57,326 nucleotides of DNA from an uncultured delta proteobacterium (lineage in GTDB: Bacteria > Desulfobacterota > Binatia > UBA9968): assembly GCA_963847445.1 (NCBI GenBank), contig CAWJZV010000020.1, positions 1-57,326 on the forward strand, read 5' to 3'. This document shows, piece by piece, positions 1-45,784 of this stretch. Numbering within the stretch: position 1 is the stretch's first letter; the number at the start of each line of letters is the position of its first letter. Under the pieces are notes generated by a model. It was not told the origin of the DNA, ran no database searches, and worked only from the letters and a program-made list of their open reading frames with translations. The position numbers and the translations under genes were made by a program.

Positions 1-392
1 GGGCAACACCTACAGTGCTTACCAAGTTGCCCCATTATTCGTGCCATAATTATTTCCCTGTTTTGCCTCGCCCAGTGAGGCATAACATCTTCCCATGTCT
101 TATTTGAAGGGACATAGATTGTATGTGGGCGTCTCTTGAAATACAGCCTCAATTCGTTATTGCCTTCAACGTAAACTAAATCGCCGTCCTCAGCTCCGCC
201 TCTAATAAATGTATAGTACCCATCAATCAGACGACGAAAACGCTCGCCAAGAAAGATCACTAGGATAGAAAAACCAACAACTCCGAGACTTCCTAGTAGG
301 ATACGATCTGTCCAAGTGGGCAACTGCAAACAAAAAGCAAGAATTGAAACAACGCCAGAAAATAGCACAAGATTTCTTAGGCTATGATACAT
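1..392 (-). CDS. Putative immunity protein of the Rhs toxin (two N-terminal hydrophobic helices; 3' end runs off the window)
   Basis: Not in the ORF track. Read manually from ATG at 392: MYHSLRNLVLFSGVVSILAFCLQLPTWTDRILLGSLGVVGFSILVIFLGERFRRLIDGYYTFIRGGAEDGDLVYVEGNNELRLYFKRRPHTIYVPSNKTWEDVMPHWARQNREIIMARIMGQLGK..., open to the window edge. AT-rich and directly downstream of the Rhs C-terminal toxin. Confidence 0.7.
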   Translation of the reverse strand, partial: MYHSLRNLVLFSGVVSILAFCLQLPTWTDRILLGSLGVVGFSILVIFLGERFRRLIDGYYTFIRGGAEDGDLVYVEGNNELRLYFKRRPHTIYVPSNKTWEDVMPHWARQNREIIMARIMGQLGKHCRCC

Positions 393-476
393 TTTGATTT
401 CAAGTCTAAATTTTCACAACAACCGAGATACTTAATTCCGCTTACATTCATTTAGGATTTAAGCTGTTTCGGCCAT

Positions 477-989
477 TCATCTCAATACAATCTTTGTTGC
501 AGGACTACCACCGATGGCGGAGTGAATTTTGTTCATGATATCAAGTAACGGCTTTTCTACCGCGCTCCACGTTCTTGCTGAGTCCGAATTACGTAAGAAA
601 ATTTGCGCATCACCTTTTGCATTCAGGGAAAAAGTTCTCGAAACCCCATTCCATATACCCTCGGGAATCGGATAGTTTTTGTCAACAAAATTCAAAAGCT
701 TGCCACCCAACGTATCCTCTAATAGTCTTCCAGCGCCTTTGCCAGCACGGGCAGCATCGAGTGCTCCCTCCCCGGAGTAAAACACTGACCGCGCACCGCC
801 GCTAAACGCGCCAGCTCCACTAAACGCTAATTGATGAAACATGCCAGTCCACCACCCCGCAGAATAGGCGGTCGAGCATTGATCAACCACGTCATTCGTT
901 CCTAGTCTCCCACGAATATAATTCGTTATTCCAAAGGTCACCATATCTCCAAAGCCAGCCGCATAATTGGCGGCCGAATCTAGAGCGTC
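477..989 (-). other. Rhs C-terminal toxin domain, ADP-ribosyl cyclase (CD38-like / Tox-ARC) candidate
   Basis: 170 aa after the DPLGL autoproteolysis motif. Motifs VFYSG, LLEDTLGG, IWNGVSRTFSLNAKGD and TWSAVEKPLL parallel CD38 LLWS, TLEDTL, FWKTVSRRFAEAACD and TFGSVE. Confidence 0.7.
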
Positions 990-3900
990 CAAACCAAGGG
1001 GATCGACAAAATAGACGGGGTTGTTCCCGACATACGTATAGAAGTTGGTACCACCGGAAAAGCCAATGAGGTCTTGTTGGATAAATCTTCCAACTGAGGG
1101 ATCGTAGTATCTTGATCGGTAAAAATTCAAGCCACTCTCTGAGTCGGACTCCCTTGCCGTATAGCCGTATAGCTGCACAAAATTCGCATCCAACTGCGAT
1201 TCAATCTTGCCGAACGACGAATAGGCATAACGTTGAGCCACCGTCCCGGACTGGTTCGTCAGCTCAGTGATGCTGCCCAGCCCATCCGCATGATAGTAAG
1301 ACCGATTGGTTATTCTTCTCCATGATCAGAGGCTCATCGATGCCGGGACCATGAGTGTAGCGGGCGACGATTTGGATTGGCGCCGTTCAGTTCGAGGAGG
1401 ATGTCTTCGTTGTCGTAGACGTACTTGGTTATCGTCGCGGTGCCGGCGATCACTTCCTTCTCGACTCTTCTGCCTAGACCATCGTAACGATAGTTCGCCG
1501 TGTTGCTGGGTGACACAACGCGAACCAGTTTGTTGTCCGCATCGTACTCGTACTGCGTGATAGCGCCGCCCAACTTCGCAGTCTTGCGGGTCAGGTTCCC
1601 GTTGTTGTCGTACTGGTATGTGAAGTTTGCGTCTTCCAACAACTGGTTCGCCGGGTTGAATATCGACGCGCCGTTCTGGTTGGAGTCGGTCCGGTTACCG
1701 ACCGGATCGTAATTAAAAGTTTCGAGCGGATTCGTTGGCAGTGGATTCACCGCTTGCGTCAACCGGTTCAACACATCGTAGGTGTAGTTCGCAATGCCAG
1801 CATTGTCGCCCTTCGACTGCCGATTCCCTACCTTGTCATACGTGTAAGCGAACGCGTTGATCGTCACGCCGCTTCGCTGGTGTGTGAGGTTTAATAACTG
1901 CGACGCCGCATCGTAGGTGTAGTTCGGTGACAACACCATTGGCGTGCGTCATTGATGTTCGTCGACCTAACGCGTCGTACGTAAATGAAGTGACTCGCCC
2001 CTGATTGTTCGTGATCGAGGTCAACCGGTTCAGCGCGTCGTACGCGTACGTCGTTAGGCCAGTCGGATCGATCATTGACGTACGGTTGCCGTTGAGATCG
2101 TAAGTGTAGACGGGGTCGAGATCATCCAACTTTGGATTTTGGATTTCCGATTTTGGATTTGACGCCGAGATTTCGGAAATACCACTCCCCGCTGCATTAA
2201 CGCTGGATGTTGCGAAGGGTCGGAGTTTTCCTGCCGCAATCATGGCGAGATAAAGGTTCGCGTACTGTCGATCCGACGCCGAGTCCGTAACTGCGAGGAC
2301 CTCAGACGAAAACACTTTCCGTTGCTGCAAATCTGTGTCGGCGATAGGTGTTTGCACCGCAGTGCTGCCGATAACGGTATTCCCACTACTCAGAGAAGCG
2401 TTAGCTTGATCCATACCGGACACGACTGGACTGACAGTCCGCCGTACTCCTCGCAAACTTCCATTGCGCGGTCATCACCGGCATTGCGTCACCAAACGTC
2501 GGACTTAGCTTGGCGATCTGCTGTTGCAAATGGATCGTACCGCTCTGGCCGTTCGGTGCGCCGCTACCAATTCCGCCGTTTACTGTAATGTTAGAAAAAT
2601 TGAAACCAGTGGCGCTCCCGTAATAGACCGCAACTCTACCGCCCCCACCGCCACCACCGCCGGAAGGTGTACCGGGACTTCCGTTGGCGCCGATAACTCC
2701 GGTACCAGAAAGTGTACCGACATCAATACGGATTCCACCTCCGCTACCGCCGGCGCTGAATCCTTCGGCTAAACCTCCACCCGCGCGCACAGCTCCGTTG
2801 AGGACAAATGTTTGTGCCGCTATGCGTGCGAGACCACCACCATTTCCGGCAGGACTACCATTAAATCCACCTCCACCGCTGCCCACGTCATTTGGATTCG
2901 TGGCAACACCATACAATGGATTTGTCGAACCGCTGAATGCACCGCCTAATCCGCCATAGCTTCCAGCGGTACCCGAACCATTTACCGACTTGAACCCTAA
3001 AGTCATACCATTGGTAGAACTCGGGTTCCCCGGTCGTCCACCACCCAAAAACCCGATGCCAATGACATCGATCCGACTCGTTCCGTCGATTGTTAAATTT
3101 TCGGTCGCCAAATCAAGTTTGAACGCCGCGGTCCCGGTCGTCGCCGCGTGGGTGAGTACCGAGTTGTTGGTCAAGTTAGTGCTATTCGAGATAACCCGAA
3201 CACCCGATGCATATTCGCTATTGTTCGAGACTTCTAATGTTCCCGTAAGATTCAGAGTTCCATCGAATTTCGCCCGAGCATTGCGCCGAATTCGGAGGTG
3301 GCTGAACGAAAGTGTCGTCGATGACGCACCTTGAATTGGAGTCCTCGAAGCGGCCAGCAGCGTCAAATTATTATTGTCAATAACTAACTCGCCACTTTCA
3401 CTAGCCGGCCCTTGCAGGTAAACAGTACCCGCCCCTCCATTTGGAGAGCCGGCACCTAGAGCTCCGAATGAGTTAACATTATTAAAGGAAAAACTTGTTC
3501 CGTTTTGATAATAGATCGCTATCCGCCCACCACCGCCGCCGCCGCCACCCGCCGGCACGAATCCCGCACTTCCGTTGGCTGAAATTGTCCCGCTCCCTTG
3601 CAGCGTTCCAACATCGATCCTGATTCCGCCGCCACTCCCTCCAGCACCAGCACCATCTGCAGTTCCACCGTTCGCCCTAATAGACCCATTCACCGACATT
3701 GATTGTGCAACGATCCGCGCCAAGCCACCGCCATTACCGGCGGGGGCTCCTTGGAATCCACCGCCACCGCTACCAACTTCATTAGGATTCCTAAAGTCGC
3801 CGTACACGGGATTAGTTGCACCGGAAAAGTTACCGCCCAGGCCGCCATAGCTTCCCGCCGTTCCCGATTGGTTCGTCGATTGGAACCCTACCGTCATTCC

Positions 3901-6900
3901 ATTAGTCGTGCTTGGGTTTCCAGGTCGCCCACCAGCCAAGAAGCCTCGACCACTGACATCAATCCGGCTCGTGGCGTCGATATTAATGTTCTGGGCATTT
4001 ATGTCGAGTTTGAAGGTTTGGGCCGACGTTGTTGATGCGTGTCCCAGCTTGCCCCCGGTGATCAGCTCAATCGTATTGGCTGTAATACCATTACCGATCA
4101 CGAATTCGCCGTTAGTGGCAATTTCCAAGGCACCTGAAATATTTAACGTACTGTCCAGCTTCGCGAGAGCTGTTCGACGAACCCGCAAATGCGTTAATGA
4201 CAAAGTAGTGTTAGCAGCACCTAGTATCGGTGTCGTCGAGGTAACTGGAACCGTCAGGTTGTTATTGTCGACAACTAGCTCGCCGCTCTCTCTAGTCGGA
4301 CCCTGCAAATATACGGTTCCCGCGCCGCCATTGATCGAACTGCCACTGAAGGCCGCGCCAAAGGCCGTCACATTCGCAAAATTGAACGTTGCTGCGCTCT
4401 GATAATAAATAGCCACTCTGCCACCACCGCCACCACCTCCACCCGCAGGCACAAATGCCGGACTTCCGTTTGCGGCAATTGAACCCGTTCCCGAGATCGA
4501 TCCAACGTCGATCCTAATACCTCCGCCACTCCCGCCAGCGCCGGAACCATCCGCAGAACCTCCGTTAGCTCGAATGGATCCATTGAGCACAATTGATTGC
4601 GCAACGATCCGCGCTAAGCCACCGCCATTACCCGCAGGGGCGCCTTGGAATCCGCCACCACCGCTGCCAACTTCACTGGGATTCCTAAAGTCGCCGTATA
4701 CGGGATTCGTTGAACCGGAAGAGTTACCGCCCACGCCGCCATAGCCTCCCGCAGTTCCCGATTGGTTTGTCGCCTGGAATCCCACCGTCATTCCATTCGT
4801 CGTGCTGGGATTTCCCGGTCGCCCACCAGCCAAGAAGCCTCGACCACTCACATCAATCCGGCTCGCGGAGTCGATTTGGATCGTGCCTGTTACCACAAGA
4901 TCGAGCTTTCCGAGCGTGGCCTCCGTCGTTGGAGTATGGGTCAAGACGGCGCCGTTCAGCAGGACTACGTTCGCAAAGGTGTGTTGCCCGTTGACGGTCA
5001 ATGTTCGGCCGTTAACTTGTAACGTCTGGCCTTCAAACTGAAAATTGGTTGCGCTGATGGTTGTATCAACGTTTATAGGAACGACTGCCGTGGAGAGCGC
5101 CGATTCCGGGGTCGAGCTACTGGAAGCCAAGCGGTTGGCTGCGTCATAGGTATTGAAGACACCCGTCGCAGGATTGATCACGGACAAGAGATTGCCGACA
5201 GAATCATAGGCAAAATTCGTGACGTAAGGGTTAGTTTCCGTCGACGTCGGTGGACGCGTTTTGCTGATAAGACGGTTCAACGCGTCGTAGTTGAATACAA
5301 TTATCTGGCTGTTGCGGTTTGTCGTGGAAGTCAGATTACCATTACTGTCGTAGGTAAACGCTTCGGTAAACCCCAGCGGATTGGTTGCGGACGCGAGACG
5401 ATCTAGACCATCGTAAACGAAAGTTGACAGCTGATTCTTGGCGTCGCGGACCTGGATTAGGTTACCCTTCGGATCGTAGCCGTACTGGGTGGTTTTGAGA
5501 TCAGCGTCTAAAACCGTGATGAGCCGATTGCGCGCATCATAGGTAAACTGCGTGACACGATTCTCGGCGTCGGTGGAGGTACTGACGTTGCCGGCGCTGT
5601 TATAAGCCAACGTCGTCACGTCGCCTTTCGGATTTGTCGTCGTAACCAGATTACCGTTCCCGTTGTAAGCGAAACTTGTCGTCGTTTGAACGGCAGTTCC
5701 GACTGCGGAAGTAACTAACAATAGCAATCCGCGCGCGTCGTAGCTCATTTGAGTGCGATTGCTGAGCGCGTCGATGATCTCAATGGGATTGCCCTTCACG
5801 TCGTAGTTGATCGTAGTGGTATTGCCCTTGGGATCGCGGATCGTCTTGACCTGATTAAAAACCGGTTCGTAGGTAAAAATAGTCGTAGCGCCGACGGGGT
5901 CGGTTGTAGTCAGCAGATTTCCGTTCGCATCGTACGCCATGGTCGTGACCGCGCCGTTTGGTCGGGTGATCCGTGTCGGCAAGCCATTGGCGTCGCGCAC
6001 TGTAGTCGTTGTTTGACCGAGGGCGTCTGTTTGAGATGTCACTTGTCCGAGCGCGTCTAGAACAAATCTATTCTGGTTGCCTCTTCCATCGGTAAGCGAC
6101 GCTGTGGCGTTTTGGCTTGTCACAATCGGTGCCGGGTTGGTCGGCGTACCCTGGCCTACTGCGGTGTCGACAAGACCGCGAAGCTTGCTGGAAACTAGCG
6201 CGCGCGTCTCGCCGGTCGGACGGGTCGACTGGGCGAATCGCCCGGCGAAGTCGTACGCATATGTGGTGCTTTGCCCCCGCTCATCGGTCGCCTGTGTGAC
6301 ATGACCCTTGCCGTCGTAGGCATAGGCCATGAAGGTCGCATCTGGGTTGATAATCCGAAGCAGATTGCCCGCTGAGTCATGCTGGAAGATCGTTTGCCGT
6401 CCAGCGGGATCGGCGATGCTCTGGAGCTTGCCACCGCTATAGGTCAAAGTCGTCACCAATCCAGCCGGATCAGTGACGGCAAGCAGTCTAGCGCTGCCAT
6501 CGTAGGTAAACGTTGCCGTATTCAGGTTTCGATCGACGATCGAGGTCTGAAGGCCCTGGGTGTTGAAATTACTCTTAGTTCCGTCCTTGTACGTTCGCGT
6601 GTACGTGCCGTCTGCGGAGTTTCTGGCTAATGTCGAGAACTCGCGCGCGGGAGAAGTAAACGTATCAGGGCCTCCGGAGAAAAACAGCGCCGTGCCGTCG
6701 CCACTGGTGAGGAGGACACCGCCGCCGGGTTGGACATGGAGTTGCTGAAGATCGCTGATCGCCCAACCGGCGCCAATGGCACTGCTCTTTCGATTAAATA
6801 CAATCACACTACCGGTAGAAATCCCGCCGACGGATGAATTGAGATAGTTGCTAAAGACCGTCGCTTCAAACGGATAGCGCCCGGTCGCCAAATTCGACGC

Positions 6901-9900
6901 ATCGAACTGGACCGACATGCGCGAGGTGGAATCGGAGTCTTCCGGCAACGAACTACTGTTAGTGTGAATCTCGCCACCCTGCTGGACGCCGCCAACTTTG
7001 AGCCGAGTTGAAAATGAATTGGGTACCGCGGCACGGACACTCAACGTGCTGTCTAAGGAAATAATCGGCCTGGGGTCGGCAGTTATAGAACTGTAAGTGA
7101 GTGACAGGTTCCGGCTTTGTCCGAGCGAGCGATAGGAAGACAAACCATGTGAGAGGTATAAGCTACCTTCTTCCAAGTTGGCTTCTGATCCAACGGCAGT
7201 GCGGCAAGATCCGCAGAAATTGTTTCCCTGACTCGGGTTCGAAGTCGTACTTGAAGCGAGCGGGAAATGCCAAGCACTGGCGGACACGCCGCCTTCAACC
7301 GTGACAACGCTCACGCCATCGGCGGACACCGCGCTCTTGCCAACGATATTGAACTTTCCAGTGTCAGGGCTGAGCGACCAGAGATTGAACTCATTACCTG
7401 GCGGGACGCCATCGGCGTTCGGGAATGTGATCCGCGCGGGTGGGTTAAAGCGAATGCCTGCCGGCTGGATGGTCACCGCCATGCCAGGGCGCAATTCTTC
7501 AGGACGCGACTCGGGGCGGCCATAATCAGGGACCGGATTGATCGAGAGCTTGCCGGTAAACGGTGTACCATCCGCGTTGAATGCCGAGCCGCCAGCGATT
7601 TCAAGCATAGCGCCCGGCAGGTTGGGATTGGTAACCACGGTCTCAAAAACCGCACTGACCTGGACCTCGGCTTCCACGTCGACGTCAGGGAGTGAGATCG
7701 CTGAATTCAAATCGTTGAGCACACCGTCAATTAGCTCCACCGCCACAGCAATGATCGCAAACACGCCGAGGTTGGCGTTGCGGCCGTTAACGATGAGTTG
7801 CTGGGTTGCGGAAGGAACGCCAGTGATCGTGAAAATACCGTCAGCGTCGGTCACTCCCGTGTGACCGCTGGATCGCAGCGTCACTTGCACGTTGCTGAGC
7901 GGGACATTTTGCAGATTGACGACCTTGCCGCGAACTGCGGTGGTGCCGCCTGGCGGCGGATTGGGCACGGTGATGGTGATGGTTTCTGAGGCGGAATTTG
8001 ACCCGGCGGAAGCGGAGAAAGTGAGTTGATAGCTTCCCACCTGGGTCGTGCTCGGCCGGAAAGTGAACACACCCGTGGCGGCATTGAACGTCGCGTGGGT
8101 CATCAGCGGCAGCGGCGCGACGAACAAGCTTGCCGAACCGGTGGCGCTGATGGCGCTCACGGTAAAAGTCAACGTCTCGCCGAGATTGGCGGTCTTGTTG
8201 CCGATCGGGTTAAGCACCAATGCCGAACCGATGGTCGCCGTGGTTTGCGAAACCGCGCTCGTGCCAAATGTGTCGGTCACTGTCAAAGTGACGGTGTATA
8301 TGCCGGTCGCAGCGTAAGTGTAAGTCGGATTCGCTCCGGTGCCCGTGCCGCTGCCTGTGGTGAGCGGCGTCGAACCATCGCCAAATGTCCACGAGTAAGT
8401 AATCGGATTGCCATCCGGGTCGCTGCCGGTGCCATTGAATTGAATTGGTGTACCGACATTGCCGCTGTACGGACCGCCGGCATTGGCCGTGGGCGGTAGA
8501 TTGACGAGAATAACATTAATCGAAACCGTGGCGGTCGCGCTGGTGCTTAGGCCGTCGCTTGCGTTGAACGTGAAACTATCGGCGCCGAAATAATTGCTCG
8601 CCGGTGTGTAGCTCACAGTCGCCGTGCAGGTCACACCCTGGCCCTGAACCGCGCAGTTGGGCGCGCCTATATTGCCGAGGGTTCCGTTGCTCGGGGGGGT
8701 GGCGATGTTGAACGTTAGTACTTTGTGATCGATGTCGCTGGCACTGAGGGTGACAATCACCGGCGTGTTTTGATTGGTGCTGATCGACTGCGACTGCGCC
8801 ACCGGAGGATCGTTGACATTGACAACCGTGACCTGCGCCATCGCCACGTTGCCGTATAGGGTTCCATCGAAAACTCGATAAGTAAACGTATCGACGCCGT
8901 TAAAGTTGGCCTCGGGAATGTAATTGAACGAACCGTTGGCATTGAGACTAAAACTAGTCGCGTGAGTCGGCCCGGTGACCAGCTCAACGGTCAGAGTCTG
9001 GCCGACATTGAGATCGCTATCGTTTTCCAGCACGCCGGGCGCGGCGATACCCAGGACGCTATCTTCCGCCACACTGTAGTTATCGTTGTTGGCCACCGGC
9101 GCGTCGTTCACTGGATTCACCGCGATGGTCACCATCGCGAGATTGCTGTCGCTCGCGCCGTCGTTCGCCTTGTAAGTAAAACTATCCGCGCCATTGAAGG
9201 TGGCTGCCGGCGCGTAGCTAAACGAACCGTCGGGATTGAGGGTAAAAGATGCCGCATGACTCGGTCCGGTAACCAGAATTGCGGTGAGATTGGCCTGCGG
9301 CGAATCGATATCGTTGTCGTTGGCTAATACGCCGCGAGCCAGGACTTCCAGCGAGGTATCTTCGTCGGTATTGTAGATGTCATTGGTTGCCACCGGTGCG
9401 TCGTTCACCGGGTTAATTGCGATCGTCACCGTCGCATCGTTGCTGTCGGTGCTACCGTCGTTAACTTTGTAGGTAAACGTGTCTGTACCGTTATAATTGG
9501 CTGCCGGCGTGTAACTGAACGAACCATCGGAATTGAAGGTGAAAGACGCCGCGTGGCTGGGAGTTGAGACCAGAACCGCGCTTAAGTTCGCGGCCGGCGT
9601 ATCGATATCATTGTCGTTGCCCAAGACTCCGGGCGCGCCCGTGCTGAGCACCGTAACCTCATTGGTATTGTAGAAATCGGCGCTGGCCACCGGGGCATCG
9701 TCGATAACGTTGACGACGATGGAAATCGTCGCAGCATTGGAATCCACAGCGCCGTCGTTGACCCTGAATGTAAAACTATCCGAACCACCGGAGTTGGCGC
9801 CGGGGGTGTACGTGACCGTGGCGGTGCAGATGGTTCCTGGAGTGCCGGTGTTATTGGGCACAGCGGTACATGAGGTGCACCGATAGCGCTGAGGGAGCCG

Positions 9901-12161
9901 TTGCTCAGGCCGGTGACGATATTGAACATCAGGCCGGTGCTGTCGATATCGATAGCGCTGAGCGTGATGACTATGGGGTTGTCTTCGTTGGTCTGCGCGG
10001 TGCCGTTGCTGGCGACTGGCGCATCATTGACTGGCAGGACAGTGAGCGAAACCGTGACAACGGTGGAGTCCAAGGGATCGTCGTTGGCTTTGAAGGTGAA
10101 ATTGTCCGGGCCGTTGTAGTTGGCCACGGGAGTATAAGTCACCGTGGCGGTGCAATTTGACCCCGCGCCGCTGGCGACACAATTCGGCGATGAAACAGCG
10201 CCGAGTGTGCCGTTGGTTGGAGCGGCGACGAAACTGAAGCTCAAGCTCGCGCTGTCGACGTCGCTCGCCGCGAGCGTTATAGCTACCGGCACATCTTCGT
10301 CGGTGGATACAGTGGCGCCGTTAGCGGTTGGCGCGTCAGCGACAGAACCCACCGAAATCGAGGCGGTGGTTACGTTGCTGGTGGCGAGGCCGTCAGTGAC
10401 CGCGAATGTGAAGCTGTCCGCGCCATTGAAGTTGGCCGCCGGGGTGTAGGTAACGCTGCCTGTACAATTACCGCTCGAACAGGTGAGCGTGCCGCTGTTG
10501 GCATTTAGCGTGCCGTTACTCGGAGCAGCGACGACGTTGAAACTCAAAGTCGCATCGTCGAGATCGATAGCGCTGAGCGAGACAATGACGGGCGTGTCTT
10601 CGTTGGTAGTTGCGCTAATATTGTTGGCCGTGGGTGGATGGTTGATGGCCGTAACGGTCACCGTGGCTGGCGCACTATTGAATTGCCCGTCGTTGACTAC
10701 CAACCGAAGGATATAATCGCCTATGACCAGCGGCGTGAATGTCGGGTTAGCCGTGTTGGCGCCGGTGAGCGTGATGTTGCTGCCAGCGGCCTGGGAGACA
10801 ATCGTCCAGAGAAATCCCAGCGGCGCGCCTTCGGGATCGCTGCTCTGAGTGCCATTGAGTGTAACGATCTCGCCCGTCGGCACGGTCTCAATGGCACCAG
10901 CGTCGGCCACCGGCGGTGCATTGGAAAACTCGAAAGCACCGGCATCGAAAGCTGGAACACGGTTGGCGTTGCCGTCGGCCGGTCGGATGCCTTCAACGGC
11001 AAAGTCAGCTTCGAAGATCGGATTGAACGACGGATTGAAGCCAAGAGTGCGCGGGTCCATGCCGGCGTCGATGGCGAGGGAATTGGGCTTCAAGCTAAAA
11101 TCGTCGTCCACCGTGTTCGCCCGCTTGTCGTGACCGTTCTTGTTGGCGAACAGATTTGCCGGCAGCTGGCAGCCCGGCAGTGCGCCAACGCCGGCGCCTT
11201 CGCTGCCCGTCGGCGTGAAATTGCCGGAGTCTGTGGCATCGAGTAATTGCGTCGAGATCTGGCCCTGGGTGTTGCCGCAGACAAGATTGTTCAACAGCCG
11301 GATATTTTGTGGTTGGGGTGTGCTGGAGCTTTCTCTTCTGACTCCAAACCGGCCACCGGTGGTCCCCGATGCGGTGCCGTTGCCATTGACGATATTGTTG
11401 GCGAGCAGAACCGTCTGGCCGCGCGCGACGTTTATGCCATTTCTTCGATTGCCGTAGACCGTGTTGTTTATGACGTAATGCGGACCGCTGCCGCTGCCCT
11501 CAAAGGCAATGCCGTTAAGACCATTGGCATAAATTAAATTGTTGACGATCAGCGTCTCGCGGTTGCCGGCACTCACGACGACGGCACCGTTGCAGGTGCT
11601 GCTAACGTTCCCGTAAATCCGGTTGAGCTCGATGTGAATAGCCACGTTGTTCACCTTGCCGCCGCCGTCAGTGTCGTCGCCATCCCCGCTTGGGGCAAGC
11701 CAAATCGCTGGTCCGGCAACGTTGGTAATGATGAGATCGCGGATGGTGATATAGCGGCTGTTGCGCAGTCTAATACCATAGCTTGGCCCGTCATCGTCGC
11801 CGCACCCGCTGTCATCATCACCGCCACCTCCTCCTGTTCCACGAACTATGACACTCCCCACCGGGCTGTTGGGGTCGGACTCGATGACGATGCGGTGCAT
11901 CTCGGTGGAACTGGCGATTCTATTCTTATTAGAAACTCTGACCTGTTCCGTATAGATGCCTGACTGAATCCGCACGATGTTGCCGGGGCCGGCGGCGTTA
12001 ACCGCCGCCTGAATCGTCGTGTAACAGAGAGTATGCCCGCCGCAAGTGGGATCGGTGCGGTTGACGTAGCGAATGGTCTGGGCTTGTGCTGTACTTATAT
12101 GAAGATTGATAAGAAAAAACAGAGACAGGGAAAGGACGGTAAACCGTTCATGTTTAACCAT
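477..12161 (-). CDS. Giant secreted Rhs/YD-repeat polymorphic toxin/adhesin (~3,890 aa after joining frameshifts near 9875, 2400-2480, 1925 and 1375)
   Basis: ORFs 9582-12185, 2401-9861, 1836-2456, 1334-1939 and 477-1241 join into one protein. Order: signal peptide (MVKHERFTVLSLSLFFLINLHISTAQA), parallel beta-helix (NNLIYAN/NNTVYGN), PKD and seven ~95-aa Ig-like repeats (NDAPVA...YTP), carboxypeptidase-regulatory-like domain, YD repeats, Rhs core (YGYTARESDSESGLNFYRSRYYDPSVGRFIQQD...NPVYFVDPLGL), variable C-terminus. Confidence 0.88.
2131..2162. repeat. Heptamer tandem repeat (TTTTGGA/TTTCCGA) in frame within the Rhs linker
   Basis: tttgga-ttttgga-tttccga-ttttgga-tttga, translated as SNPKSEIQNPK. 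Same unit as the intergenic repeats at 14645 and 24031. Confidence 0.75.
2510..5110 (-). repeat. Three tandem ~297-aa glycine-rich repeats inside the Rhs protein
   Basis: RIDVSGRGFLAGGRPGNPSTTNGMTVGF...GSGGGG...GNGGGLARIVAQ...GGSGGGIRIDVG...GGGGGGGRVAIYY...GGAGTVYLQ recurs at spacings of 894 and 891 nt (anchors near 4832, 3938, 3047). Confidence 0.9.
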
Positions 12162-12175
12162 CGTTGCGCCACGGC

Positions 12176-12673
12176 TCACAAGCACCGTTGCTCAACCTGT
12201 TCCTGAAGCTTTTCGTAGGCTTTGAGTAGATCCGTGGAAGTCAGAATGCCGGCGACCCGGCCGTCGGGTCCGATCACCGGTAAGCAGTTGACGCGCTTTT
12301 CGAGCATCAAGCGCACCGCGGCGGAAATCGCGATCTCGGGCGTGGTCGTGATCGAATCGGGGTTCATGATCTCGGCCACGCTCCTCTTGCTCCAGTCCGG
12401 CGTGCGCGACAGCGCGCGCAGCACGTCGCGATCGGAAATCACGCCGTGAAGGCGTTCGTCCTCATCGACGACCAGCATATGATGGAAGGAGCGGGTCGCC
12501 ATCATGCCGACCACCTCAGCGAAACTTTGATCCGGCAGCATGGTCCGGACGTCTTTGGTCATGATGTCGCCCACCTGTGCAGGAGCGTTTATCGAAACGT
12601 GCAGAGTTGTTGGCATTTGAGTTTGTGTACTTGTCGTTTTATCCACGGCTATTCTCCTTCCTTGGCGTTCCAC
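12176..12673 (-). CDS. CBS-pair domain protein
   Basis: VGDIMTKDV...HHMLVVD...GVISDRD...VAEIMNPD...CLPVI...GILTSTDLL. Abuts the cheY stop and ends just upstream of the Rhs ATG. Confidence 0.85.
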   Translation of the reverse strand: MERQGRRIAVDKTTSTQTQMPTTLHVSINAPAQVGDIMTKDVRTMLPDQSFAEVVGMMATRSFHHMLVVDEDERLHGVISDRDVLRALSRTPDWSKRSVAEIMNPDSITTTPEIAISAAVRLMLEKRVNCLPVIGPDGRVAGILTSTDLLKAYEKLQEQVEQRCL

Positions 12674-13052
12674 TCACGGCAATATCTTGTTCAACTACTC
12701 CTGGAGCGTCGCCGCGTTGAACGGCTTAGCGATGTAATTGCTAACCCCGGCCTGGGCCGCTCCGAGGATGTTTTCCTGTTTGGCTTTCGCAGTCACCATC
12801 AGCACCAGCGTGGTCTTCAAGCCGTCTGCGGCGCGGATGCCTTCAACAGCTCGATCCCGGTCATCCCCGGCATGTTCCAGTCGGAGACCACGAAGTCGGC
12901 TTTTGGCGTTTTCAGTTCATCCAACGCCAACTCACCTTTTCCGCGTCGCGCAACTTTTTGAAATCGAGATCCTTCAACAAACCGCGCCCGATGCGGCGTA
13001 TCGCCGAAGCGTCGTCGACGATCAACAGGTCCATATCAGGATCAACAGCCAT
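12674..13052 (-). pseudogene. cheY: cheY pseudogene
   Basis: Manual translation [112 protein letters not shown]. Two 1-nt deletions plus an in-frame TAG at 12695-12697. Confidence 0.85.
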
Positions 13053-13148
13053 TTCGATTCTCTTTCAGTCTTCCGTCGTTTCACTGTGTACTCGATCGCG
13101 GATCGCCAGGCGGCGGGCGCTCAACAAATCACTCGGTGCACTTTAAAT

Positions 13149-13175
13149 TCATCGGAAAGATAAGCCGGTTCTTTA
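13149..13175 (-). promoter_or_regulatory. sigma28 (FliA)-type promoter
   Basis: Minus strand TAAA-GAACCGGCTTATCTT(15 nt)-TCCGATGA versus consensus TAAA-N15-GCCGATAA, ~100 nt upstream of cheY. Confidence 0.7.
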
Positions 13176-13259: not shown

Positions 13260-13292
13260 AAAAAAGGCGCGGGAGCCGAAAGGCTCCCGCGC
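13260..13292 (-). terminator. Rho-independent terminator of the flagellar operon
   Basis: 11-bp stem GCGCGGGAGCC-GAAA-GGCTCCCGCGC with an A6 tract on the left (U-tract on minus strand), just after the flgE stop. Confidence 0.85.
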
Positions 13293-13329: not shown

Positions 13330-14625
13330 TTATCGTTTCAGGTTGGACACTTCCTCGAGTAGTGAATCGGTCACGGTGATGGTTCGCGACGAGGCTTGGA
13401 AGCCGCGCTGGGTGGTCACCATCTTGACGAACTCGGTGGCCAAATCGACGGTCGAAAGTTCCAGCGAGCCGGATAGGACGGTACCGAAACTGCCGTCGCC
13501 GGGATTGCCGTTGAGCGCAAGCCCGGACTCGGGCGACTGGAGATAAAGCGAATTGCCGACATGGGCGAGCCCCTGGGGGTTGGCGAAGTCGGCTAACGCG
13601 ACGCGAAACAGCGGTTGGTTGCCGCCGGAAGTAAACTGGCCGGAGATCACACCGTCGGTGCCGATGCTGATGCCCTTGAGAATGCCTGATTGCGCGCCGT
13701 TCTGATTGATTTGGCTCACCGAGGAGGGCAGGGCAAATTGGGTCGTGCCGGTGAAGTCCATATCGACCGCGGCGACGGTTTGCGGGTTGGCGCCGTTGTT
13801 CCACGCGATCGCGGCGACATTGGTGATGTTCGAGTTTGCCGTATCCAGCGAACCGTCGGGATTGAAAGCCAACAAGCCGCCCGCGCCGTTAATCTGCTGG
13901 AGACTTCCCGCCGTGCCGCCGGTAATTTCGCTGGCGTTGGCGACCACGCGATAGTCCCATTCGTTCGCGGTCGCGGTCTTGCTAAACAGATAAGTCAGGT
14001 CATGCCCCTGGCCGAGCGAATCGAATACAGTCACCACCGTGGAAAAGTTGGCGCCGGCAAACCAATTGCCGGCGGTGTCCTCGGTGCCGGCCGCATCTGC
14101 CGGCAGCGCCGCGGTCGGCACCGTCTTGGTGGCGTCAAGATTGAGAGCGAGATCGATCTCGGTGGTTTCCACCGGCGACACCACCAACTGACTGATGACG
14201 ATATTGGTCAGGCCGCTGATCGGATTGCCATTGGCGTCCAACTCGGTTCCCTGGACTCTCAGACCGCCGGGGTTGACGAGATTGCCGTCCGCGTCGACGC
14301 TGAACTGTCCGGCGCGGCTGTAAAAGGTCCCGCCCTGAAGGTCGCGCAGAACGAACAGCCCTTTGCCTTGAACCGCCAGATCGGTGGTGCTGTTGGTGGT
14401 CTCGACGCCGCCCTGAACAAACAGCCGGTTGGAATCCGCCAAGCGCGACCCCAGACCGATCTTGGTGCCGCCGACATCGGCGCTCAAGAGATCGAAAAAC
14501 ACCGCGCGGCTCGATTTGAAACCGATCGTATTGGCGTTGGCGATGTTGTCACCGATGATATTCATCGCGTTACCGTTGCTGTTGATGCCGCTGACGCCCG
14601 CGAACAATGCTCCTGTTAATGCCAT
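13330..14625 (-). CDS. flgE: Flagellar hook protein FlgE (copy 2)
   Basis: ALFAGVSGI...IGDNIANANTIGFK, TDLAVQGKGLF, YSRAGQF, LELSTVDLATEFVKMVTTQRGFQASSRTIT. Confidence 0.92.
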   Translation of the reverse strand: MALTGALFAGVSGINSNGNAMNIIGDNIANANTIGFKSSRAVFFDLLSADVGGTKIGLGSRLADSNRLFVQGGVETTNSTTDLAVQGKGLFVLRDLQGGTFYSRAGQFSVDADGNLVNPGGLRVQGTELDANGNPISGLTNIVISQLVVSPVETTEIDLALNLDATKTVPTAALPADAAGTEDTAGNWFAGANFSTVVTVFDSLGQGHDLTYLFSKTATANEWDYRVVANASEITGGTAGSLQQINGAGGLLAFNPDGSLDTANSNITNVAAIAWNNGANPQTVAAVDMDFTGTTQFALPSSVSQINQNGAQSGILKGISIGTDGVISGQFTSGGNQPLFRVALADFANPQGLAHVGNSLYLQSPESGLALNGNPGDGSFGTVLSGSLELSTVDLATEFVKMVTTQRGFQASSRTITVTDSLLEEVSNLKR

Positions 14626-14644
14626 GAAGAACCTCCTTGAAGTA

Positions 14645-14754
14645 TTTTGGATTTTCGATTTTGGATTTTCGATTGCCGGATATTTAGCGCCATCATTGCG
14701 CTGTTTGTTTTCTGCCTTTCTTAATTTGTCATTTTGAATTTGGAATTTTTAATT
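14645..14754. repeat. Heptamer tandem repeats between the two flgE genes
   Basis: (TTTTGGA-TTTTCGA)x2 at 14645-14672 and degenerate TTTTGAA-TTTGGAA-TTTTTAA at 14732-14752. Confidence 0.7.
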
Positions 14755-16009
14755 ACCCTTTCAGCTCCGCCGCGATGCTGTACATCTGCTCGGCGGTGGT
14801 GATCACTCGTGAATTGACCTGAAACGCCCGCTGTAAACTGATCAGCGAAACAAACTCCCGCGCTAGCTCAACGGTCGATAGCTCGAGGCTGCCCGCCACC
14901 AGGCTGCCAAAACCATTTTGACCGGGAGTACCGGCTAGCGCGGCGCCGGATTCGAAGTTCGGGGCGAACAGCGTATTGCCGAGCGGGTCGAGATCGTCAA
15001 TGTCGTTGAAGTTAGCCATGGTGATTGACGCGAGTTGCTGCGTGAGACCATTGGTAAATTGGCCATTGACGTTTCCTTGCGAGTCGACGCTCACCGCATT
15101 CAAGGTACCGGCGGCGTAACCATCCTGGTCGAAACTAAAAAGAAACGATGGCTGAGCGAATTGCACGGTGCCGGCAAAATCAATGGCGCCGGCAGGAATC
15201 GTCTGGGCCGCCCCATTGGTCCAGTTGAGTCCGCTAATGTCGCCGATCGTGCTGGCGGCGCCATTGAGCTGCCCGGTGGCAGTAAAAACGAAAGTCCCCG
15301 GCACACCCACTTGGCGCAGATCGGTGCTGGACGGCGCCGTGCCATCGAGTTCGCTGCGCGGCGCCACCACCTGGTAGTCCCAGGTATTGGGCGCGCTCAG
15401 ACGAAACAGGAATGTCAGATCATGGCTGGCGCCCTGACTATCGTAGATGGTCGCCACCGTGGAGAAATTGCTCGACGCGACCCATTGCGCCGGACTGGCA
15501 TCGGGCCCTGCGGGAAATGGCGTACTCGGGGTGGTCGATGACGCATCGAGATTGAGTTGCATGGCGAGATTGCCGGTGGCCTGCGCCGGGATCGCGAGCG
15601 CGCTATTGATAACGATATCGCCGGCAGAGCCTTGAAGAATCTGCCCGCCCGGATTGACCATCTGGCCGGCGCCGTCGAGGTGGAACTCGCCGGCCCGCGT
15701 ATAGCGCAGGCTATTTGACAGCGGGTCGCGCACGACGAAAAAACCGTTGCCGGATATCGCCAGATCCAACGCCCCATTGGTGGTTTCAAGGGCGCCCTGT
15801 TGGAATGGTTTGCCGACATCGGCCAAGCGCGCGCCATTGCCAGTTTCGATTTCACCCCACACCGTCGGCATGACATCGTCGAAGGTGAAGCGGCTGGATC
15901 TGAAGCTCACGGTATTGAGATTGGCGATATTGTCGCCGGTGATCTGCATGGCGTTACTGAACATCTCCATGGCGTTGCCGGCGACTTGCATGGGTCCGAT
16001 TATCGACAT
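14753..16009 (-). CDS. flgE: Flagellar hook protein FlgE (copy 1)
   Basis: GDNIANLNTVSF, LDLAISGNGFF, YTRAGEF, LELSTVELAREFVSLISLQRAFQVNSRVITT. Start reset to ATG 16009 after a GGAGG RBS. Confidence 0.88.
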   Translation of the reverse strand: MSIIGPMQVAGNAMEMFSNAMQITGDNIANLNTVSFRSSRFTFDDVMPTVWGEIETGNGARLADVGKPFQQGALETTNGALDLAISGNGFFVVRDPLSNSLRYTRAGEFHLDGAGQMVNPGGQILQGSAGDIVINSALAIPAQATGNLAMQLNLDASSTTPSTPFPAGPDASPAQWVASSNFSTVATIYDSQGASHDLTFLFRLSAPNTWDYQVVAPRSELDGTAPSSTDLRQVGVPGTFVFTATGQLNGAASTIGDISGLNWTNGAAQTIPAGAIDFAGTVQFAQPSFLFSFDQDGYAAGTLNAVSVDSQGNVNGQFTNGLTQQLASITMANFNDIDDLDPLGNTLFAPNFESGAALAGTPGQNGFGSLVAGSLELSTVELAREFVSLISLQRAFQVNSRVITTAEQMYSIAAELKG

Positions 16010-16022
16010 CGAATTTCCTCCG

Positions 16023-16688
16023 TTAGCGTGACGCCCGCACCGCGATGACACTGCTGAGCGGCACATCGACACCGTTCACTTCCAACACCGGCTCGGTGCC
16101 GTCGAGCCGCACACCGGTAACCAATCCCTGGAGTTTGCCGGATGCGGCGATTTTCTTGCCATTGACATCGACTGCATTGATGTCGAAGCCGTACACGCCC
16201 GGGCGCGCGCTTTTACCGGTGCTGTCTTTGCCGTCCCACACCAAGGTTTGTTCGCCGGCACTGCGCGCGCCGGCATCGAGACGCCGGACGATCTCGCCAT
16301 TGGCGTCGAACACAGTGATGACGACCTTGGTCGCGTTGGCGCCCAACTGATAGCCGATGTTCGACGCTGCGCCGGCGCTGACACCGACTTGATTGCCGGC
16401 GGAGGTGATCTGCTTGCCGATCAAGGAAGCCGCGTTGTACTGATTCATCGAGCCTTGACCATTGTTCATCGCGCCGAGCTTGTCATTGATTTCGATCAAC
16501 TGGCCGAGGCTGTTGAAGGTCGCCAACTGCGCCGCGAATTCTTGATTGTCCATCGGCTGCAGCGGATCTTGATTCTGCAATTGCGTGATCAAGAGCTTGA
16601 GAAAATCGTCCTGGCTGGCGACTTGGTTCTTGAGCGGATTCGTCGCAGTGCTGGCAGCCGCGGCGGCGTTGACATTTTGTACGGCCAT
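16023..16688 (-). CDS. flgD: Flagellar hook capping protein FlgD
   Basis: DDFLKLLITQLQNQDPLQPMDNQEFAAQLATF and WDGKD motifs. Confidence 0.95.
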   Translation of the reverse strand: MAVQNVNAAAAASTATNPLKNQVASQDDFLKLLITQLQNQDPLQPMDNQEFAAQLATFNSLGQLIEINDKLGAMNNGQGSMNQYNAASLIGKQITSAGNQVGVSAGAASNIGYQLGANATKVVITVFDANGEIVRRLDAGARSAGEQTLVWDGKDSTGKSARPGVYGFDINAVDVNGKKIAASGKLQGLVTGVRLDGTEPVLEVNGVDVPLSSVIAVRASR

Positions 16689-16717: not shown

Positions 16718-18477
16718 CTACGCCCACATGCTGACGCGTCCATCGGAGTTGCCCACAGGTTGCGCCAAAGGTTCTGTCATCGCCTCGTCAGCGACCCCGG
16801 AGTTAGCCACGCCTCGAGAAGATTCCTGCCGACCGTGCGGCGATTGGCTAAAGTCTTGCGCCAGCGCGCCGCCACCGTTCCATTCGCCCTGGGTCACCCG
16901 CACTTCACCGAAGTCCATCTGGCCGGCGCGCAAAGCCTGATGCAATTCGGGCAGATGATGCTCAATCAACGCATGTGATTCCTGGCCTTCGGCGGCGATG
17001 CGGACGTGCAGTTGGCCGTCTTCGATGCGCAGTTCGATTTTCACCTTGCCCAGTTCGGGCGGATCCAATTGCAGTACCGCTTGTCGTTCGCCGACGCGAA
17101 AATGCTCGCCAATATCCCGCGCCAGCCGCTCCACCATGGGACGCCAAGCTGGTGCCGCGGTTGCACCGCGGTAGGATTCGTCAAGCCGCGCCGGCGCCGC
17201 GCCGGCAACCATGGACGGATTCGCTTGGCCATCGCCTTCGCGCGGCTGACCTTGCCAACCATCCTTGGCGGCGCTGTGTTCGTCGCCAGGCGACGCTGCG
17301 GCCATGGCGGGTTGGCTGTGCTCGCCATCCCGCATAACCGTGCTGGCATCCGCTAAGCCGAAGGTCGCGGGATTCGCCTCGGGATCGATCTCCAGCGGCC
17401 GCTCCGTGAAGGGGGAACGGTGCATCCCGTCCGACTGTTTCAGCGCAGCCGTAGCGTTAGCCAAAAAAGAATCGTTGAGGGTCATCGACACACGGTTTTC
17501 ACTACGCAAGGATTGCGCTTTGAGGTTATCGCGATCATCCGACCTTGACGGAGCTTTCGTTGCGGAAATCGGCAATGCAACCTGTTGCTTGGTCGTCAAG
17601 TCATCGTTTGCTTGGTTGAGAAGTTCTAGGGGCTGTCTCTCCACGGCTGTGGCCATCTCACTGGCGAGCGAAGTCCGCATATCGACGATCGGCGATCGCG
17701 GCATGGCACTGCCATCGAGTCCAGTGGATTTATTGAGTGGCGATGCGCTCTGTCGCATGTCAGTACCCACGTCGCTTTTGGCCGAAGCCTCGAACATAGC
17801 TGGCAGCGCGGTGCCGATCAGCGGCTGAGTTAACGTCATCTGCGGCGTTCCAGCCAAGCCAGTCTCGGCTAACTCATTGACCGGCGGCTCGTCATCGCGC
17901 CGCGGGCGGTGCTCCATGGTCACCGGCGCAGCGTCAACGGCATCAGTAGATTGCGTATCTCGGCGCTTGATCTGCCAGCATCGTCTTGGCGTTCGACCGC
18001 GGCAAGGGTCGGCGTGTGGCGGCAGATTCGACAATCGTGCGGACATCGCTGTGGCACTCGGCAAATGGCAACCTGGCGACTTCGATCTCGCTGGAGTAGC
18101 TCGCGCGGCAAGGGTCGGCGGCAGATTCAACAATCGTGAAACCGGCGGTTCGCTGGCTGGCAACGCCGGCAAATCACGAATACCGAGAGATTTTTCTGTC
18201 TAGGCGAATGAGCTTCGGCGCCGATAGGATTTGCCGGTTCGCTTGCCGACGCCGGCGCTGCGGCTGGCAACATCGAGGGTTCAGTACTCGCGGCTGAATC
18301 TGCCGGCGCCGGCGGCGCGATTTGGGCCGCTGGCGCCGGCGCCAAAAACATATTGAACAGTTGCGCGAAAACATTGACCGGTGCGGCTTCCTCGGACTCA
18401 TCCGGTAAACTTGGCAGCGGCAGCAGAGATGTTGATTGGGTATCGTGGACGATCATGCCGGACAGCGACATGAGCAA
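16718..18477 (-). CDS. fliK: Flagellar hook-length control protein FliK (frameshifted)
   Basis: C-terminal LQLDPPELGKVKIEL...LPELHQAL motif and Pro/Ala-rich N-terminus in a second frame (18127-18477). Located between fliJ and flgD. Confidence 0.8.
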
Positions 18478-45240: not shown

Positions 45241-45283
45241 AACGATATCTCACAGCAAACCGGGCTTATTAATTTTTGAATTC

Positions 45284-45692
45284 TTAATTGTCCTCATCCA
45301 CATGTTTCGCCAAATCGGTCACCGACAATATACCGACCGGTTTGATATGCCCGTCGACTCGCTCCGCGACCACGCAGCCGATGAATGTGCTTTTCATTGA
45401 GCAGCAGCACCGCTTCGCGAATGGTCGTGTCCGCCGTGACACTAACCACCGGTTTGGTCATCAAGTGCTCCGCCCCCATGCCGTGCCAGTGCCTAAAGTA
45501 AGGCTGGATGAAACGCGAATTGACCAAGTCCGTGCGCGAGATCACACCGACCGCCTCGCCGGCATCGTTAACCACCACCAGCGCGCTGATATCCTGCGCG
45601 TCCATGGTCTGCGCCACTTCTTCCACCGGTGTCTCGGGATGGCAGGTAACCACCCCACGGTGCATCCAGTCACGGACAGTTTTTTCGCTCAT
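45284..45692 (-). CDS. CBS-pair domain protein (one frameshift)
   Basis: VRDWMHRGVV..ISALVVV..GVISRTDL..LMTKPVV..IHRL/..GILSVTDL. Confidence 0.8.
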
Positions 45693-45704
45693 GCTAAATC
45701 CTTC

Positions 45705-45776
45705 GTTCAAGGTTCAAGAATTCAAGGGTTTAATCGGCGCTCCGACCTTGAAGATTGAACTTTTGCAGCTTGAACA
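45705..45776. repeat. Heptamer inverted repeat element (GTTCAAG...CTTGAAC)
   Basis: gttcaag-gttcaag-aattcaag ... cttgaag-attgaac ... cttgaac, between the PFOR alpha gene and the CBS gene. Confidence 0.55.
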
Positions 45777-45784
45777 GTCTATTT

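Follow-up and report, generated by a model that had tools for sequence, protein, structure and literature searches.

A conserved sigma-28-type chemotaxis promoter beside a giant Rhs gene with a predicted Sec signal and CD38-like end: probably two neighbouring units

Introduction

Does a bacterium tie a giant toxin to its flagellum by keeping the toxin gene behind a flagellar promoter, or have two separate units come to lie side by side? This question is raised by one end of a 57,326-nt stretch of DNA (here the window), which is the entire contig CAWJZV010000020.1 (C20) of an uncultured delta proteobacterium of the Binatia lineage UBA9968 (assembly GCA_963847445.1, here G000; 7.19 Mb in 48 contigs, completeness 91.8%, contamination 6.9%). 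There the hook gene flgE is followed, on the minus strand throughout, by a terminator, a sigma-28 (FliA)-type promoter motif, cheY, a CBS-domain gene, a giant Rhs gene and a small open reading frame (ORF). A first-pass annotation of the window read this arrangement as a new system, a sigma-28-coupled operon for a giant adhesin and toxin. We consider it probable, at about 0.62, that two separate units adjoin here, a FliA-dependent chemotaxis promoter and a giant Rhs polymorphic toxin, and they seem to have come together recently and by chance, not as a dedicated system. The locus would then combine the conserved FliA promoter of a shrunken chemotaxis operon with a new giant Rhs protein that has a Sec signal and a CD38-like end. 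The apparent flagellum-coupled toxin operon would be a false lead, explained by two units of known kinds that adjoin each other in three species only.

Results

The window was compared with 90 genomes of the family, which belong to 23 genera and include 31 genomes of the genus of G000; at the DNA level its nearest relatives are G003 (93% identity) and G004 (83%). The family of the giant gene, searched for with a query of 420 N-terminal residues, is present in 26 of the 90 genomes and nine of the 23 genera, with open frames of 3,000-3,900 codons in several of these relatives. One unpublished genome (G062) is included in this count, and the result is unchanged without it. The order flgE-cheY-CBS-Rhs, for which the first-pass annotation proposed a synteny check in relatives, is not conserved: upstream of the giant gene at 26 loci from 25 relatives, a CBS gene was found at two (G003 and G004) and cheY at one, and the remaining upstream neighbours are unrelated to each other. 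Only in the same two closest relatives does the giant gene lie beside flgE, the other 24 of the 26 loci being elsewhere. No sigma-28-like site was found within 700 nt upstream of the giant gene in any of the 22 loci scanned, a set that omits L048-L051 as short or partial; the sigma-28 site of G003 lies beyond this range. Furthermore, FlgE has no match in 18 of the 26 genomes with the giant gene, and where a genome has both (eight cases) they are on different contigs in five. G004 retains the CBS gene and an Rhs frame of 3,790 codons despite having lost cheY and the promoter. Because the giant-gene family is found mostly elsewhere, and without a sigma-28 site or FlgE, the coupling is not a conserved system, and the proposal of a new sigma-28-Rhs system does not stand.

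The features of the locus in the window are as follows.

13330..14625, minus strand: flgE (hook protein, 431 amino acids), an ORF, last gene of the flagellar cluster and second of two tandem FlgE-like genes
13267..13292, minus strand: intrinsic terminator after flgE, 11-bp stem with 10 G-C pairs, 4-nt loop and T run
13149..13175, minus strand: sigma-28 (FliA)-type promoter, by direct reading TAAA at 13175-13172, N15, TCCGATGA at 13156-13149
12695..13052, minus strand: cheY (single receiver domain), 119 amino acids once two frame shifts are read through, stop at 12697-12695
12176..12673, minus strand: CBS-pair gene, PF00571 twice, E 1.9e-30
477..12161, minus strand: giant Rhs/YD gene, ATG at 12161, stop at 479-477, six frame pieces
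2464..4875, minus strand: three tandem glycine-rich modules of about 298 amino acids, putative beta-solenoids, seen by self-similarity with an 894-nt period
480..1001, minus strand: C-terminal toxin, a linker and a predicted ADP-ribosyl-cyclase (CD38)-like domain, beyond the DPLGL core end
3..392, minus strand: immunity candidate, two predicted membrane helices and a soluble domain, incomplete at the contig end

The gaps are short (about 21-48 nt between cheY and the CBS gene, 14 nt between the CBS gene and Rhs, 84 nt between Rhs and the immunity candidate), and this close spacing was seen in G000 only. The CBS gene likely starts at a GTG at 12646, which is preceded by AGGAG, with 12673 as the alternative. 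The cheY-CBS-Rhs interval holds no credible terminator; a scan found only weak stems of 5-8 bp, 13 of them against 17.5 expected from shuffles. The layout described in the first-pass annotation was thus correct, both in the close spacing of genes on one strand without a terminator and in the correctly spaced motif behind the flgE terminator. The terminator hairpin is also found in G003 and G004, and orthologues of flgE are 66-92% identical in 16 relatives.

The motif fits the two sigma-28 boxes, TAAA and (G/T)CCGAT(A/G)A, at the expected distance of 15 (±1) nt; in E. coli and Salmonella the consensus of FliA class-3 promoters is TAAA-N15-GCCGATAA. The looser pattern TAAA-N15-NCCGATNA has 21 matches across both strands of the 7.19-Mb genome, one of them in C20. 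FliA is encoded in G000 on contig C14 (TIGR02479, 223.9 bits against a cut-off of 189.6), and the flagellin gene of this genome is preceded by TAAAG-N14-GTCGAT. FlgE matches were found in 18 of the 90 family genomes (four of the 31 in the genus), and we surveyed the best FlgE locus in 17 of these 18, omitting G053, whose copy is at a contig end. In 16 of the 17 loci, from eight genera, a motif TAAA(G)-N14-16-N(C/T)CGAT lies 87-357 nt past the flgE stop, usually behind a hairpin; the sole locus without it is that of G004. Between genera the intergenic DNA around the motif fails to align. The 17 loci contain 21 matches in 139,858 positions, of which 16 are the ones behind flgE; shuffles averaged 1.4 matches and never exceeded 6. 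We interpret the motif as the promoter of a late chemotaxis operon because CheZ-like and cheY genes lie downstream of it across relatives. Judged from sequence, it is a true sigma-28-type promoter of that operon, and it would be expected to depend on FliA. Here the first-pass annotation, which had read the motif as a correctly spaced sigma-28 site, is borne out by the conserved motif and by the presence of FliA.

The promoter resembles the class-3 flagellar and chemotaxis promoters of FliA in its two boxes and their spacing, in its place after a hook gene and before a cheY or CheZ-like gene, and in that FliA is encoded in G000. It differs from them in the -10 box of the family, which begins with T or G and often finishes in G or C, and in the non-flagellar giant gene that in G000 lies downstream without an intervening terminator. 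Among the papers listed on FliA, sigma-28 and Rhs together (15 of 92), no title or abstract deals with FliA control of an Rhs gene, and the main text of an E. coli paper using systematic evolution of ligands by exponential enrichment places the rhs loci under heat-shock and extracytoplasmic sigma factors, not FliA. Such a well-footprinted promoter supplies a FliA consensus for an uncultured and mostly non-flagellated family.

What the promoter drives varies among the relatives. At 14 further loci, a CheZ-like gene (about 200-240 amino acids or shorter) followed by cheY lies downstream of it in nine; cheY is full-length (about 125 amino acids) in ten and a remnant in three, and one locus has the CBS gene alone. 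The CheZ-like gene matches HAMP at E 1e-5 and CheZ at 20 bits, which is under the cut-off. The fullest comparison comes from G068, of the same genus, where the order is CheZ-like gene, cheY, CBS gene, Hpt/cheA, cheW and chemoreceptors, and where the N-terminal Rhs query gave no match in the genome. CBS orthologues also lie behind cheY in G003 and behind the promoter in G057. Neither G000 nor G003 has the CheZ-like gene or anything of cheA after the CBS gene, and tblastn found no cheA remnant in the 335-bp spacer discussed below. The three frame pieces of the G000 cheY match the intact 119-residue CheY of G003 (PF00072, 92 bits), and both genes end at the same TAG (window 12695-12700; about 15165-15170 of G003 locus L011), some seven codons before the end in other genera. 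The codons beyond this shared stop still resemble the lost C-terminus. In G004 a 25-codon cheY relic is all that is left, and the motif is gone. Since relatives such as G068 retain a fuller operon, and independently of any frame shift, we conclude from gene content that the chemotaxis operon is truly shortened in the lineage of G000, G003 and G004. This much of the "decayed chemotaxis transcript" of the first-pass annotation holds; its other part, the broken cheY frame, is most likely an artefact, as discussed below.

The second unit is the giant Rhs protein. Read by eye and not with a predictor, its N-terminus begins with basic residues, continues as a hydrophobic segment and places AQA ahead of a Q. 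This pattern suggests a Sec-type signal, and the protein would be exported by the Sec route. Pfam domains follow in the order Beta_helix, PKD, Big_9/Cadherin about nine times, a second PKD, He_PIG, CarboxypepD_reg (transthyretin-like, TTR-like) and RHS repeats (PF05593, E 2.9e-74, plus matches in further pieces). The TTR-like domain is followed, up to the first YD repeats, by about 400 residues that match no Pfam family and no solved chain by sequence. The YD repeats occur at 6564-5110 and again at 2102-1499, and about 1,000 residues, including the three 298-residue modules, separate the two blocks; an insertion of this size within an Rhs shell is unusual. The modules match no Pfam family, and the ESM Atlas gave only unnamed clusters for them. 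An AlphaFold 2 model of one module is all-beta with a predicted local distance difference test score (pLDDT) of 62.6, and its nearest solved folds are, weakly, beta-helix adhesins (Z at most 6.7). The modules are also present in G003, G004 and a "Deltaproteobacteria" metagenome-assembled genome (MAG; L056). The core closes with NNPVYFVDPLGL, a PxxxxDPxGL motif (here DPLGL) that precedes the variable end. No PAAR or VgrG domain was found by Pfam in the N-terminal piece, and VipB/TssC has no match in the genome, which is 91.8% complete. The first-pass annotation, which had noted the lack of PAAR and VgrG and proposed a Sec-exported toxin or adhesin, agrees with this predicted signal, the adhesin-like domains and the absence of type VI secretion system (T6SS) parts.

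Homology between the window and the DNA of G003 and G004 breaks off at base 1117, and the toxin ends beyond it are related but diverged; to judge by the alignment, this is a classic Rhs toxin swap. Pfam recognises RHS or YD-shell domains in 17 of the 19 homologues of the 174-residue toxin end, and genomic copies occur in Blastocatellia, Pyrinomonadaceae, Verrucomicrobia and "Deltaproteobacteria" MAGs. An AlphaFold model built from 15 sequences finds its best solved match in the Pantoea T6SS ADP-ribosyl cyclase (ARC) toxin 9RO8 (Z 9.0, root-mean-square deviation 3.0, 105 residues, 24% identity), next in the Aplysia cyclase (Z 7.2), CD157 (7.0) and CD38 (6.8); behind these four cyclases come TIR domains and deoxyribosyltransferases. 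In the 15 sequences W117 and E149 are invariant and an acidic residue is present at 95 or 96, and this acid-22-Trp-32-Glu spacing resembles the E299-24-W323-33-E356 of the Pantoea toxin given in a part of PMC12605009, which lists two Trp and two Glu as the catalytic residues of ARC toxins. In passages of PMC3482391 and PMC12356396, Imm74 is described as the usual partner of Tox-ARC. In L054 and L055 an Imm74 gene follows the toxin homologue, and G004 has one within an array; because Imm74 genes neighbour the homologues, the ARC assignment has independent support. Several results point the other way. The confidence of the model is modest (pLDDT 59.7, about 70 over residues 70-174), the toxin end has no Pfam family at E up to 5, and a profile search against solved chains gave only porcine CD38, non-significantly (E 1.2). 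In that non-significant alignment TV(F/L)YSG...LLEDTLGG pairs with TVFWS...LENTLLG, and W..S..FA.NAKG.VQVFL with W..S..FAENACGMVQVFL; the same alignment together with the spacing places Y75 where CD38 has its first catalytic Trp. For the toxin domain the ESM Atlas returned unnamed clusters only (best score 0.90), with MafB, TNT and EndoU as weak leads. On balance the modelled fold suggests that the toxin end is probably an ARC domain, which would make it an NADase.

Tox-ARC polymorphic toxins were predicted by Zhang et al. 2012 (PMC3482391, seen here through the passages on this family), and ARC toxins deplete NAD(P)+ according to parts of PMC12356396 and PMC12605009. Compared with the Tox-ARC toxins described there, Tac1/Tci1 of Streptococcus parasanguinis (PMC12356396) and ARCtox of Pantoea ananatis (PMC12605009), the toxin end of the window has the same predicted fold, an LEDTL-like box, the W..S..FA.NA.G.VQVFL stretch, an invariant late Glu, a place at the C-terminus of an Rhs protein, and Imm74 genes behind its homologues in L054, L055 and G004. 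It differs in having no Pfam match and a Tyr for the first catalytic Trp, in its carrier, which has a Sec signal and not PAAR, LXG or two-partner secretion (TPS), and in its immunity candidate, which is predicted to be membrane-anchored and is not demonstrably Imm74.

The ORF at 3..392 may encode the immunity protein, as the first-pass annotation had proposed, since L052 (53% identity, E 7e-47) and L053 (40%) have homologues of it directly behind the same toxin domain. Membership of Imm74 (PF15603) is not established for this ORF: it has no match to the family, its BLASTP E value was 0.24, and its hhalign probability against neighbours of the Imm74 type was 1.2%. In G004 the array behind the Rhs gene (L012 4384-5920) consists of a frame-shifted toxin end, an 86-residue ORF, a version of the immunity candidate that lacks the membrane part, and an Imm74 gene (L012 4387-4683; 37.5 bits, over the PF15603 cut-off).

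Both units are read here through frame shifts. The giant gene is broken into its six pieces by five single-base shifts, near 9873, 2463, 1925, 1375 and 1300, and cheY carries two, near 12936 and 12838. By arithmetic from the coordinates the giant gene has 3,893 codons once the shifts are read through; the length of about 3,890 residues in the first-pass annotation is correct in this sense, but the assembly has six pieces and not one frame. Each break is a one-base length difference private to G000 when compared with both G003 and G004, and the frame of G004 is open for its 3,790 codons over the same stretch. Near-identical public contigs, which derive from biofilter, sediment and soil metagenomes, show the frame-restoring length at 1297, 1376 and 1923 in all three covering runs (three studies), at 9872-9875 in both covering runs, and at 12838 and 12936 in the one covering run; contig X4 has one extra base at each of the two cheY sites. 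In total, independent contigs show the frame-restoring length for six of the seven shift sites. Similar breaks occur elsewhere in the assembly: carB (G000:C2:35842-39004, minus strand) is in five collinear pieces, a UvrA copy (C25:79476-81931) and a DnaE-like copy (C30:221674-224394) are in four pieces each, a Na/sulfate symporter (52004-53498, minus strand) is spread over two overlapping ORFs, one with Pfam positions 2-197 and the other with 201-465, and a fliK-like gene (16718-18477, minus strand) is in two frames compared with G004. A pyruvate:ferredoxin oxidoreductase-type (PFOR) gene at 43749-47694 of the window (minus strand) is in five collinear pieces with differing frames and with stops inside two of them, due either to a patch of assembly indels or to a broken gene. 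Overlapping ORF pairs with high third-position GC (GC3) number 19.2 per 100 kb in C20 compared to 14.4 overall, a measure that is uninformative as it is dominated by normal gene pairs.

We consider the shifts in cheY and Rhs to be most likely assembly errors, and in the cell the two genes are therefore probably intact; cheY is not the pseudogene it had been called. A different reading takes the shifts as real: once the chemotaxis operon was lost, cheY and the giant gene would have been left to decay as pseudogenes, with nothing functional expressed. The density of the shifts speaks for decay, seven in 12 kb compared to at most one (in fliK) across 18 kb of neighbouring flagellar genes, as do the true shortening of the chemotaxis operon, the deletion of cheY in G004 and the early cheY stop common to G000 and G003. 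Points that weigh against assembly error include the shift near 2463, which is absent from the list of public-contig comparisons, and the intact rpoB, rpoC, dnaE and two uvrA copies, which indicate that errors are not uniform and occur in patches. However, all shifts are single-base and private to the G000 assembly, a gene of 11.7 kb contains no nonsense or larger lesions, and contigs from another run (X1), 98-99.8% identical to the window over the listed pieces, do not have the shifts. carB and the PFOR gene are shifted equally densely, and G003 carries different breaks of its own, also in flagellar genes. We therefore regard decay as very unlikely, and it is equally improbable that a cluster of real lesions hides among the shifts. 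Clustered single-base errors in such assemblies can mimic pseudogenes.

Discussion

Our results are consistent with two units that were built separately. In the first, a FliA-dependent late promoter behind the flgE terminator would drive a small chemotaxis operon throughout the family, consisting of a CheZ-like gene and cheY and, in the genus of G000, also of the CBS gene, cheA and cheW; in the lineage of G000, G003 and G004 this operon would have been reduced to cheY and the CBS gene. In the second, the giant Rhs/YD toxin would be exported to the periplasm through a cleavable Sec signal, with a stalk of beta-helix, Ig-like, PKD and TTR-like domains followed by a YD shell. The shell would enclose a CD38/ADP-ribosyl-cyclase-like toxin that consumes NAD(P)+ and is released at the DPLGL site, and the protein encoded by the next gene would protect against it. 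The Rhs gene would ancestrally have had its own leader of 335 bp, which is missing in G000, and in G000 transcription that starts at the cheY promoter may continue into the Rhs gene as a side effect of gene order.

The leader is where the reading as two units meets most resistance. In G003 and G004 a 335-bp spacer with AAGGAG precedes the Rhs ATG, and by parsimony this spacer appears to be ancestral and lost by G000. In G000 the 14 nt between the CBS stop and the Rhs ATG contain no Shine-Dalgarno sequence, no sigma-70-like site was found on the minus strand between 13200 and 12100, and there is no terminator between the sigma-28 promoter and the Rhs gene, so any Rhs transcription must come from upstream, as the first-pass annotation proposed. 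The spacer of G003 also has no predicted terminator, so read-through could predate the deletion, and no promoter was identified in the spacer of G003 or G004. These observations count against two independent units. They make read-through from the sigma-28 promoter into Rhs plausible in G000, and they invite the interpretation that a deletion of about 335 bp joined Rhs to the FliA-dependent cheY-CBS unit, such that the toxin would be made only in flagellated cells. That the sigma-28 promoter is genuine and FliA encoded adds to its appeal. On the other hand, the arrangement is known from a single error-prone assembly, the CBS/Rhs junction of G000 had no match in exact-pattern scans of metagenome contigs (which may omit near-identical records), loss of the ribosome-binding site would lower translation and not tune it, and relatives that lack the promoter (G004) or FlgE still have the Rhs family. 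We thus consider such promoter capture unlikely. Taken as a functional arrangement, opportunistic capture in one or two species is likewise doubtful, as is the fuller version in which this one-lineage deletion fused a Sec-exported Rhs NADase toxin and adhesin to the remnant and gave killing or adhesion by motile cells. The abutment itself could be due to the assembly having dropped the spacer, in which case G000 would be organised exactly like G003. The error patches of the assembly, the spacers in both nearest relatives and a junction not seen independently are in keeping with this; however, the documented errors are single-base and not losses of 335 bp, and a near-identical public run has depth across 12070-12516, although its listed pieces do not cover the junction. 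A dropped spacer seems to us less likely still than capture. With these explanations weighed, we favour two adjoining units. If capture did take place, it would link motility to interbacterial competition, and a true loss of the leader would make this locus a convenient natural test of the rewiring of a toxin gene to the motility regulon.

The spacers of G003 and G004 hold two further elements. The leader (L011 14300-14640; L012 17204-17570, minus strand) contains a conserved 10-nt inverted repeat in which CTGACTCCTT pairs with AAGGAGTCAG, the ribosome-binding site. The resulting anti-Shine-Dalgarno/Shine-Dalgarno hairpin in G003 folds, but the 136-nt stretch is no stabler than shuffles (z 0.01), and we do not retain it. 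Control by sigma-54 was likewise considered and rejected: the box TGGCAC-N5-TTGG occurs in the spacers of G003 and G004, but the GC of its -12 element is mismatched and it is found in none of 20 other upstream regions, one of which has a variant spaced by 4 nt. The repeat or the box may serve translational or sigma-54 control, neither of which is statistically supported.

WapA of Bacillus subtilis and Streptococcus suis is a Sec-exported, wall-associated Rhs toxin, and the giant protein is about 1.6 times its length. The two have in common that they are Rhs toxins with an N-terminal Sec signal, without a T6SS, and expected to act in contact-dependent competition. WapA is from monoderms and is anchored in the wall, whereas G000 encodes the L-ring gene FlgH and is therefore a diderm, so that an outer-membrane step is needed. 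T6SS Rhs effectors (Tse15, RhsA, Tre23) have the YD shell, the DPxGL autoproteolysis motif, a swappable toxin end and a downstream immunity gene (here a candidate) in common with the giant protein, which differs in having a Sec signal and not a PAAR/VgrG-binding N-terminus, and in a genome without TssC. The giant protein also resembles the bacterial teneurin-like proteins (TLPs; BiTLP, 9PT5/9IFO), as portrayed in passages of PMC13018210. Both have a Sec signal and Ig-like adhesion domains at the N-terminus, a TTR/CarboxypepD_reg-like domain, a YD shell that carries a DPxG cleavage motif, and a small polymorphic toxin at the C-terminus with an immunity gene (in G000 a candidate) next to it. Among solved structures, BiTLP also matches the end of the Rhs core best (E 1e-24). 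Unlike in TLPs, no FN-plug or NHL propeller was found by sequence in the stretch that leads from the TTR-like domain to the YD repeats, three predicted beta-solenoid modules (about 1,000 residues) break the YD region, and the signal peptide appears signal peptidase I (SPI)-like and not of the lipoprotein type. An Rhs protein of about 400 kDa with a Sec signal would have to cross the outer membrane in a diderm without T6SS, and if the modelled fold is right, giant Rhs proteins of this kind carry CD38-like NADase toxins in such a bacterium.

Three minor observations concern the same genome and family. G000 has a second, smaller Rhs gene on another contig (C46:287900-290401, plus strand), with an open frame of 1,357 codons. 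The two tandem FlgE-like genes (13330-16072, minus strand; 431 and 439 amino acids, 44% identical) are kept paired in most flagellated relatives, and the upstream paralogue, at 14753-16072, has the FlgE Pfam domains. Across the family the flagellar hook genes are patchy, suggesting that motility was repeatedly lost or gained.

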